Sequence record: NC_014792.1
Length of the DNA: 64,000 nucleotides
Source: Escherichia phage vB_EcoM_VR7
Strand: one strand, 5' to 3'
In this document: piece by piece, positions 27,372 to 28,623 of the stretch
How the letters are laid out: every line of letters starts with the position of its first letter
How positions within the stretch are numbered: the stretch's first letter is position 1
Translations under genes and position numbers: made by a program
Notes under the pieces: generated by a model
What the model was told of the DNA's origin: nothing
Seen by the model: only the letters and a program-made list of their open reading frames with translations
Database searches by the model: none

Positions 27372-27943
27372 TTACGACATTCCTCAATAAAAGAGTTTAA
27401 TGTATTTTTCTTTGTGATATTGTCATATACCTTTTTAACTTTAGAAATACGAAAAGGTACTTCAATAACAGAGGTCCACAAAAATGATGCGATAATACCT
27501 GCAATGGCCGCAGATACTGCTGCCCCGAATACAGAAATAGGCAAGTCATTTTTCGTTGTCAGGAAAAACCACAGGATTGGAAAAAATAGTATTCCCATCC
27601 AAACATAGAACCTGGAGCACACCAACTTGTCATATTCATCGCTCCATGTACGAAAACCATATTTTTCACTATAACAAATCAATGGGTCAGGTGTTTGTTC
27701 TTTATGCGGTTCTGGTTGCCAGCCTTTAACGATGTGCTTCATTTTATATTCCTCAATTAAAAGCTCTTTCATATGACGGTTACAATGCGACCAATCAACG
27801 TTTTCCACCTTGATTCCTTCATCACCATCATCAAGGTTTGCCCAATATCTTTTGGTAATCATAAATTCATCTCTTGGAACTGGAATACCCGCACATCCAC
27901 CTTTCATATCACCCATGCAACCGGGTTCATACATCATTACCAT
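27368..27943 (-). CDS. Membrane protein with Cys-rich N-terminal domain
   Basis: 191 aa; two C-terminal hydrophobic helices. Confidence 0.45.
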   Translation of the reverse strand: MVMMYEPGCMGDMKGGCAGIPVPRDEFMITKRYWANLDDGDEGIKVENVDWSHCNRHMKELLIEEYKMKHIVKGWQPEPHKEQTPDPLICYSEKYGFRTWSDEYDKLVCSRFYVWMGILFFPILWFFLTTKNDLPISVFGAAVSAAIAGIIASFLWTSVIEVPFRISKVKKVYDNITKKNTLNSFIEECRK

Positions 27944-28623
27944 CCCTCCATAGGGAATTCCAGATATACTTGGGCATTAACGCGGATTTCATTGGTAATA
28001 TTTTTAACACGGTCAGTGTTACGAGATACACGACCAAACCAACGCCAACCATTGCGCACTGTCTGGGAACCAGTATGCCAGGTATGACAATTAAACTGCA
28101 GGAGTGTGCGGTCAGGAGCTTCCCATTGCTCTAATTCACCTGATTCAATTTTAGCCAGAACTTCTTTATGCCATTGGCGATAAATCAGTTCACCTTCTGG
28201 GATTTCACTAAAGGTGGCTTCGCCTGTAGCAAAATGGGTAGGACACACATCAGCGTTAACAAGACCAAGAATGTGTTCAGACATATAGCGAGGGTTGTCA
28301 TAATCTGGTTGACCCGCAGTAATAAAATGTTGTCCAGTTGGAATGGGTGGACGCGGAACATCATCATGATGATAGCCAGGGATAGCTGGATACCAACCCG
28401 GCATTAACATATGCACACGTGAATCAAACACAACATGTTGATTAGTCCAATCAATTGGGAGATTGGCAATAAAGCTACGAGTGATTGGACCACCATTATC
28501 CCAAGCAAAACTCAAATCACAGTTAAAAAACATTGGTTCATTTTTGATTTGGTCATTTTGTACGTTATGTGCAAAACCACCAACTGCACGAGCTTGACTA
28601 TTAAAAGTTTTAGGACCGTTCAT
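27937..28623 (-). CDS. Hypothetical protein, possibly 2OG-Fe(II)/PhyH-like dioxygenase fold
   Basis: 228 aa; YHHDD ... CHTWHTG ... R spacing resembles HxD...H...R facial triad; weak. Confidence 0.4.
   Translation of the reverse strand: MNGPKTFNSQARAVGGFAHNVQNDQIKNEPMFFNCDLSFAWDNGGPITRSFIANLPIDWTNQHVVFDSRVHMLMPGWYPAIPGYHHDDVPRPPIPTGQHFITAGQPDYDNPRYMSEHILGLVNADVCPTHFATGEATFSEIPEGELIYRQWHKEVLAKIESGELEQWEAPDRTLLQFNCHTWHTGSQTVRNGWRWFGRVSRNTDRVKNITNEIRVNAQVYLEFPMEGW

Follow-up and report, generated by a model that had tools for sequence, protein, structure and literature searches.

A divergent, virus-restricted protein family encoded by Escherichia phage vB_EcoM_VR7 and its relatives is probably a small Fe(II)/2-oxoglutarate-dependent oxygenase

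Escherichia phage vB_EcoM_VR7 (NC_014792.1) carries, within the 64,000-nucleotide (64-kb) stretch that we analysed and call here the window, a gene at 27937-28623 whose 228-residue product matches PHROG 1843, a family listed as 'unknown function' (E 2.9e-92). The question raised by this locus is what kind of enzyme, if any, the gene encodes and on what it might act. A first-pass annotation had called the product a possible '2OG-Fe(II)/PhyH-like dioxygenase', i.e., an iron- and 2-oxoglutarate (2OG)-dependent enzyme resembling phytanoyl-CoA hydroxylase. Based on residue conservation and a structure model we propose, with a probability of roughly 0.72, that the product is a small stand-alone non-haem Fe(II)/2OG-dependent oxygenase with a double-stranded beta-helix (DSBH) core, that its substrate is likely a small anionic metabolite and that the gene is an accessory one. 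The family it belongs to is divergent and restricted to viruses; its members are very probably active Fe(II)/2OG oxygenases whose predicted structures lie nearest to those of PhyH-like small-molecule hydroxylases.

The gene reads on the minus strand from an ATG at 28623 to a TAA at 27939-27937, giving 228 codons by open reading frame (ORF) analysis; the plus-strand frame over the same interval holds many stops. Both ends had been placed exactly by the first-pass annotation, and the motifs it pointed to, YHHDD, CHTWHTG some 90 residues later and a downstream Arg, are all present in the translation, as Y84-H85-H86-D87-D88, then C179-H180-T181-W182-H183-T184-G185, which begins 91 residues past D88, and then Arg at 190, 194 and 198. 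Residues are numbered here in the true protein with Met as 1; Met1 was left out of our alignments (A1 and A2) and of the structure model, in which the numbering is one lower. The features of the gene itself are as follows.

27937..28623, minus strand: coding sequence of 228 amino acids, predicted Fe(II)/2OG-dependent oxygenase (ORF and translation, PHROG 1843, DSBH model)
28631..28635, minus strand: Shine-Dalgarno sequence GAGGA, 7 nt 5' of the ATG, by reading of the sequence
28363..28371, minus strand: codons H85-H86-D87, predicted proximal HxD metal-binding motif (H85 and D87 conserved, H86 variable)
28075..28077, minus strand: codon H183, predicted distal metal-binding His on predicted strand beta-VII (conservation, model)
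28030..28044, minus strand: codons R194-W-F-G-R198, predicted strand beta-VIII (conservation, model)

A pattern of HxD followed after 50-150 residues by His and a further 8-12 residues on by Arg occurs in 20% of 20,000 shuffled sequences matched for composition, and the caution with which the first-pass annotation had treated its motif, calling the evidence weak, was well placed. The motif is meaningful because its residues are conserved and not because of the motif alone. Among 146 homologues sharing 25-80% identity with the query, 17 positions are invariant, including H85, D87, R91, H183, R194, R198 and R214, and in a set of 126 divergent representatives (25-58% identity to the query) H85 is kept in 125, D87 in 123 (one other has Glu), H183 in 124, R194 in 124 and R198 in 123-125. 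Most of the exceptions to the H85-D87-H183-R194 tetrad among these representatives resemble frameshifted or chimeric metagenome proteins. D67, Y148 and a C-terminal GW are likewise invariant in the family. As H86, D88, H180 and R190 vary freely among its members, the real motif is H85-x-D87 ... H183 ... R194.

The AlphaFold2 model, built on the 146-sequence alignment, has a mean predicted local distance difference test score of 92.9 and a predicted template-modelling (TM) score of 0.89. Its N-terminus consists of a hairpin and four short helices, and its strands run at 65-73, about 78-87 (where the model has isolated bridges at 78 and 85), 116-122, 129-138, 165-168, 173-178, 182-185 and 192-201, with a helix at 147-161 inserted between beta-IV and beta-V. 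In the model the strand order is that of an eight-strand DSBH, or jelly-roll, the fold that characterises the superfamily. HxD follows strand I, H183 lies on strand VII and both R194 and R198 lie on strand VIII, so that the conserved H85, D87 and H183 occupy the predicted beta-II and beta-VII positions expected of an HxD...H facial triad. R194 comes 11 residues after H183, within the 10-12 residues at which the superfamily places its basic residue on beta-VIII, and R198, being four residues further on, would be on the same face of that strand. The strand positions and the fold matches described below suggest that the metal ligands and the Arg would converge on one pocket.

In a Foldseek search of the PDB the top matches were HygX, H11, ColD and EvdO2 (E ~1e-3, TM ~0.4). 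Structural scores of 7.5 for human PhyH, 7.0-7.7 for prolyl hydroxylases and 6.1-7.3 for AlkB homologues speak of a likeness at the level of the fold and not of the family. Among predicted viral structures (BFVD), the matches were the family itself, followed by uncharacterised viral proteins and cyanophage 'phytanoyl-CoA dioxygenases'. The fold search that the first-pass annotation had proposed as a check thus came out in its favour, with a predicted DSBH and 2OG enzymes as the nearest structures.

Among known systems the closest are the PhyH-like enzymes, such as human phytanoyl-CoA 2-hydroxylase (PDB 2a1x), EctD (ectoine hydroxylase), EasH, H11 (proline hydroxylase), KanJ, SnoK, HygX and EvdO2. 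The human PhyH fragment that we used is 100% identical to PDB 2a1x and reads I-H-GSGQNKTQGF-R-K, IHGSGQNKTQGFRK; the VR7 protein reads W-H183-TGSQTVRNGW-R194-W, WHTGSQTVRNGWRW. The two share a His-to-Arg spacing of 11 and a Gly-aromatic-Arg context (H-x(10)-R with G-[FW]-R). Unlike the protein studied here, with its 228 residues, the PhyH-like enzymes are 250-310 residues long, and the similarity of sequence or profile to them is not significant; the N-terminal hairpin-plus-helices module, the 147-161 helix, the extra invariant residues and the restriction to viruses are particular to the phage family. A homologue with 79% identity in an Aeromonas phage is named 'Phytanoyl-CoA dioxygenase family protein' in its source record. 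Probing for PhyH genes of phages with tblastn gave no match. We conclude that the protein probably works like a PhyH-type enzyme, with membership in Pfam PhyH unestablished. The enzyme class named by the first-pass annotation is supported by the conserved tetrad and the predicted DSBH; membership in Pfam PhyH is not supported by the profile searches.

Halogenases carry HxG or HxA in place of HxD. The BesD-type Fe/2OG lysine halogenases (PDB 6nie) were the only PDB entries touched by a profile of the divergent family (E 0.28, not significant), neither the query by phmmer nor the first family profile having matched any PDB sequence. H183 aligns to their distal His and R194 to their Arg, but the phage family differs from them in keeping the Asp of HxD in 123/126 members. 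A halogenase-like HxG variant among the homologues (P0300) is apparent only and looks like a frameshift artefact. Also comparable are the cyanophage 'phytanoyl-CoA dioxygenase' or 2OG-Fe(II) oxygenase genes (of P-SSM2, S-IOM18 and others), which also encode small, stand-alone phage DSBH oxygenases of unassigned substrate. Their fold matches in BFVD are weak (E 3e-3 to 2e-2, with TM only ~0.36), and unlike the family of the VR7 protein they belong to other phage lineages and are recognised by Pfam-type annotation.

We infer metal binding, 2OG binding, catalysis and the class of substrate. In the mechanism that we propose by analogy with the superfamily, Fe(II) would be coordinated by H85, D87 and H183 as the facial triad, and 2OG would chelate the iron with its C5 carboxylate salt-bridged to R194 on beta-VIII, probably assisted in carboxylate binding by R198 and by T129 on beta-IV. 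Decarboxylation of 2OG driven by O2 would then yield succinate, CO2 and an Fe(IV)=O species, which would hydroxylate or otherwise oxidise a C-H bond of the substrate. That substrate is most likely a small anionic metabolite of the infected cell, possibly derived from a nucleotide, rather than phage DNA. We favour such a metabolite because the closest structural relatives act on small molecules, because of the invariant R91, R198 and R214, extra Arg residues that would suit an anionic substrate, and because of the genes for NAD/ADP-ribose or RNA-end metabolism that recur, though not universally, next to members of the family.

The family is essentially viral. By tblastn, homologues are found in 471 phage records from unrelated phage groups, most of them T4-like phages of Escherichia, Shigella, Klebsiella, Enterobacter, Serratia, Citrobacter, Aeromonas and Erwinia; homologues of 27-31% identity occur in Mycobacterium, Gordonia, Bacillus, Pectobacterium and Pseudoalteromonas phages, one of 67% identity in a 50-kb Stenotrophomonas phage and others on uncultured marine viral contigs. 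Among 1.84 billion cluster representatives, 613 clusters at 50% identity belong to the family at E <= 1e-3, nearly all of them stand-alone proteins of ~220 residues. Prokaryotic genomes, 185,579 of them with one per species, yielded only 12 loci, mostly on short contigs of metagenome-assembled genomes or in prophage-like settings, and the bacterial and megaphage contexts of homologues held nothing informative. The window has no paralogue of the gene, and our literature search found no paper on PHROG 1843. The distribution is that of an accessory, horizontally mobile phage gene, serving perhaps in host takeover or counter-defence, and not that of a core function.

Three natural fusions of 387-444 residues, all metagenomic (P0257, P0317 and P0382), carry the domain twice in tandem. 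The tetrad is complete in the N-terminal half, whereas HxD, the distal His and R194 are gone from the C-terminal one, which has the look of a degenerate pseudo-enzyme. As these fusions join an intact to a degenerate copy, the stand-alone protein probably works as a dimer.

The genes that recur beside members of the family give a lead as to substrate, not a demonstration. Within 86 loci related to the query, a NAMPT gene (PF04095 + PF18127) lies within 3.1 kb of the family gene in seven (L042, L049, L069, L079, L063, L070 and L085), and in four of these (L042, L049, L069 and L079, with the family gene at ~7986-8693 in each) the stop of NAMPT and the start of the family gene share a 4-nt overlap. 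Four of the seven (L049, L063, L079 and L085) also have NMNAT-Nudix genes, and two (L063 and L079) have a gene with a Macro domain. As the family proteins of these loci are only 48-69% identical to one another and their NAMPTs 30-72%, the linkage is either old or recurrent. We take the NAMPT-bearing loci, as a lead, to be NAD salvage modules of the KVP40/NARP2 type with the oxygenase as an extra gene; the NAMPT + NMNAT pathway (NARP2) is reported to occur in ~1.1% of phage genomes (bioRxiv 10.1101/2024.02.11.579819). Dioxygenases go unmentioned both in that preprint and in a survey that covered viral NAD-ADPr systems systematically. In 62 loci of the actinophage type a different set recurs on the same strand: 29 have a calcineurin-like phosphoesterase gene within 2.5 kb, 13 have RtcB and 11 have a gene for a YAcAr SLOG protein. 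Among loci L095-L126 the phosphoesterase gene lies upstream or downstream of the family gene, depending on the lineage.

These neighbours admit a narrower view, which we hold to be doubtful, in which the family would be a counter-defence or host-takeover enzyme acting on the NAD+/ADP-ribose or nucleotide-signal pool, e.g., by oxidative inactivation of a nucleotide-derived immune signal or of a by-product of NAD+ cleavage. It would explain the translational coupling to NAMPT in divergent phages, the SLOG, phosphoesterase and RtcB neighbours in actinophages and the position, in T4-like phages, two genes from NudE, an enzyme active on ADP-ribose and NADH.

Returning to the broader proposal of a small-metabolite Fe(II)/2OG oxygenase, several results weigh against it, some from sequence comparison and others from genomic context. 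Pfam gave no match at E <= 10 for the query, which does not reach the gathering score of the PhyH model (PF05721), nor any for two distant homologues, and when run on the 126 family members it returned scattered noise, with PhyH in a single member at E 0.068. NCBIfam gave no match. With hhalign, alignment A2 set against 39 PHYH fragments labelled PF05721 (C-terminal only and of low diversity) placed His on His and Arg on Arg in register, but with a probability of only 0.28% (E 0.22). The profile search that the first-pass annotation had also called for therefore brought nothing significant by any sequence method, be it Pfam, NCBIfam, PDB sequences or hhalign. Apart from T4-like synteny no universal partner gene is found in the 86 query-related loci, nor is there one in the 62 of the actinophage type. 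The window itself is without NAMPT or NMNAT and has only NudE and a Macro/Tk.4 homologue, which leaves the VR7 gene outside the NARP2 co-location, and the adjacency to NAD genes elsewhere could come from the mere clustering of accessory genes.

Among the alternatives, a nucleic-acid oxidase, i.e., an AlkB-like repair demethylase or a TET/JBP-like base hydroxylase working on DNA, of the phage or of the host, or on tRNA/RNA, is in our view unlikely. AlkB and ALKBH demethylases differ from the family in the spacing of their Arg, show no sequence match to it (2OG-FeII_Oxy_2 included) and score structurally below the PhyH-like enzymes, so that AlkB homologues are not the best structural neighbours. 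The TET/JBP 5mYOX enzymes (PMC13229309) resemble the VR7 protein in being phage-encoded Fe/2OG enzymes with HxD...H...R, yet they form the separate Tet_JBP family, of which no domain match is found here, and their structures are absent from the top matches. The first-pass annotation had seen in the gene a possible relevance to modified phage DNA. That link is not supported because the affinity to TET/JBP or AlkB is lacking, because the locus has no methyltransferase, glycosyltransferase or ParB neighbours that might act as partners, because the family occurs in phages of unrelated DNA chemistry (actinobacterial, Bacillus and Stenotrophomonas phages and marine viral contigs) and because T4 lacks the gene at the syntenic site; the finding appears to be without bearing on DNA hypermodification. 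Rather improbable too is a protein hydroxylase (prolyl, lysyl, asparaginyl or arginyl) that would modify a host or phage protein, such as a translation factor or ribosomal protein, during takeover. We rank nucleic acid and protein as lesser rivals to a small anionic metabolite, the substrate that we favour.

A DSBH or cupin protein that makes no use of 2OG, whether as a binder or sponge for a ligand or as a metal enzyme that takes some other co-substrate, would accord with the weak AraC_binding (cupin) Pfam matches of 4/126 family members (best E 0.003) and with the tetrad-less copies in the fusions, from which the scaffold seems to tolerate the loss of catalysis. It is nonetheless very unlikely, since not only the triad but also the Arg that occupies the 2OG-binding position on beta-VIII is near-universal (124/126 for the Arg) and since the structural neighbours are 2OG enzymes and not sugar-binding or AraC-type cupins. 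The least credible reading, a chance motif in a non-coding or mis-called ORF, could appeal to the one shuffle in five that carries such a motif, but it is already refuted by full-length conservation in the 471 phage records and 613 clusters, and the ribosome-binding site, the confident fold and the invariant tetrad speak against it as well.

The proposed assignment would give an enzyme class to PHROG 1843, which Pfam, NCBIfam and PHROGs leave without annotation and which stands as 'hypothetical protein' in 471 sequenced phages; the carriers include many T4-like coliphages that are candidates for therapy, and Klebsiella and Aeromonas phages. If a host metabolite or immune signal is indeed the target, oxidative chemistry would join the counter-defence strategies of phages, and if not, the family would be one more accessory oxygenase of unassigned substrate.

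The surroundings of the gene in VR7 are consistent with its accessory nature. The 5 kb around the gene are 97.6% identical to those of Escherichia phage vB_EcoM_VR26 (Tevenvirinae, Gaprivervirus), in which gp128, a 'hypothetical protein', is 99.6% identical to the VR7 product. The order of transcription is the DUF7277/DUF7275 protein, the HNH endonuclease, the oxygenase, the e.2-like membrane protein, a 78-aa ORF, nudE, e (lysozyme) and denV. The stop of the oxygenase gene overlaps the ATG of the gene after it (ATGGTAA).

29330-30295, minus strand: DUF7277 + DUF7275 protein of 321 aa, PHROG 2141, unknown function, in the same inserted block between e.2 and e.3
28683-29333, minus strand: HNH endonuclease of 216 aa, PHROG 374 (E 1.8e-59), no Pfam match, labelled 'restriction endonuclease' in VR26
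28651..28679, minus strand: weak match to a sigma-70-like promoter (TGTACA-17-CATAAT, TG-extended) in the 59-nt gap before the oxygenase gene
27368..27943, minus strand: e.2-like membrane protein gene, PHROG 2203, downstream of the oxygenase gene, its ATG overlapping the oxygenase stop
26684-27142, minus strand: NudE, Nudix hydrolase; the oxygenase gene is two genes upstream of nudE
21066-21542, minus strand: Tk.4 homologue, PHROG 335 'phosphatase', 6.4 kb from the oxygenase gene
~27937 to beyond 30800, minus strand: hyperplastic insertion between e.2 and e.3, by comparison with T4 and VR26

As e.2 and e.3 are adjacent in T4 (67652-68319), with no oxygenase gene between them, and are nine genes apart in VR26, the oxygenase gene being one of the nine, the gene belongs to a lineage-specific insertion in a plastic region. 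The HNH endonuclease is probably of the free-standing homing type, in keeping with the mobility of the insertion. The e.2-like gene was considered as a conserved partner and rejected, as an unrelated gene lies downstream of the Stenotrophomonas phage homologue. The promoter match is to be read against a scan at chance level (14 sites, where shuffled sequence leads one to expect 12.0 +/- 3.0). According to the T4 record, the nudE orthologue of T4 is active on ADP-ribose and NADH; the Tk.4 homologue is 60-99% identical to members of its BLAST cluster, one of which (that of locus L079) matches Pfam Macro. Both NudE and the Tk.4/Macro homologue thus represent ADP-ribose-related activities close to the oxygenase gene.

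A few records of individual homologues deserve mention. IMG/VR contig 2802429060_000011 (loci L121 and L128) carries two family genes ~10 kb apart. In Aeromonas phage 65 (GU459069.1, 182773-183458) the homologue is recovered by tblastn in three pieces and annotated as ORFs of 143 and 86 aa, and the gene appears to be disrupted. Homologues in Yersinia phage vB_YenM_P8 (PP693301.1, 53533-54216) and Escherichia phage ESCO10 (OM386655.1, 48010-48693) are called 'baseplate hub subunit', a label that, given the predicted fold, is almost certainly a mis-annotation. Four homologues of ~70% identity (P0052, P0055, P0059 and P0096) come from 108-113 kb Klebsiella contigs that are labelled bacterial and may be phage-plasmids or unrecognised phage genomes.
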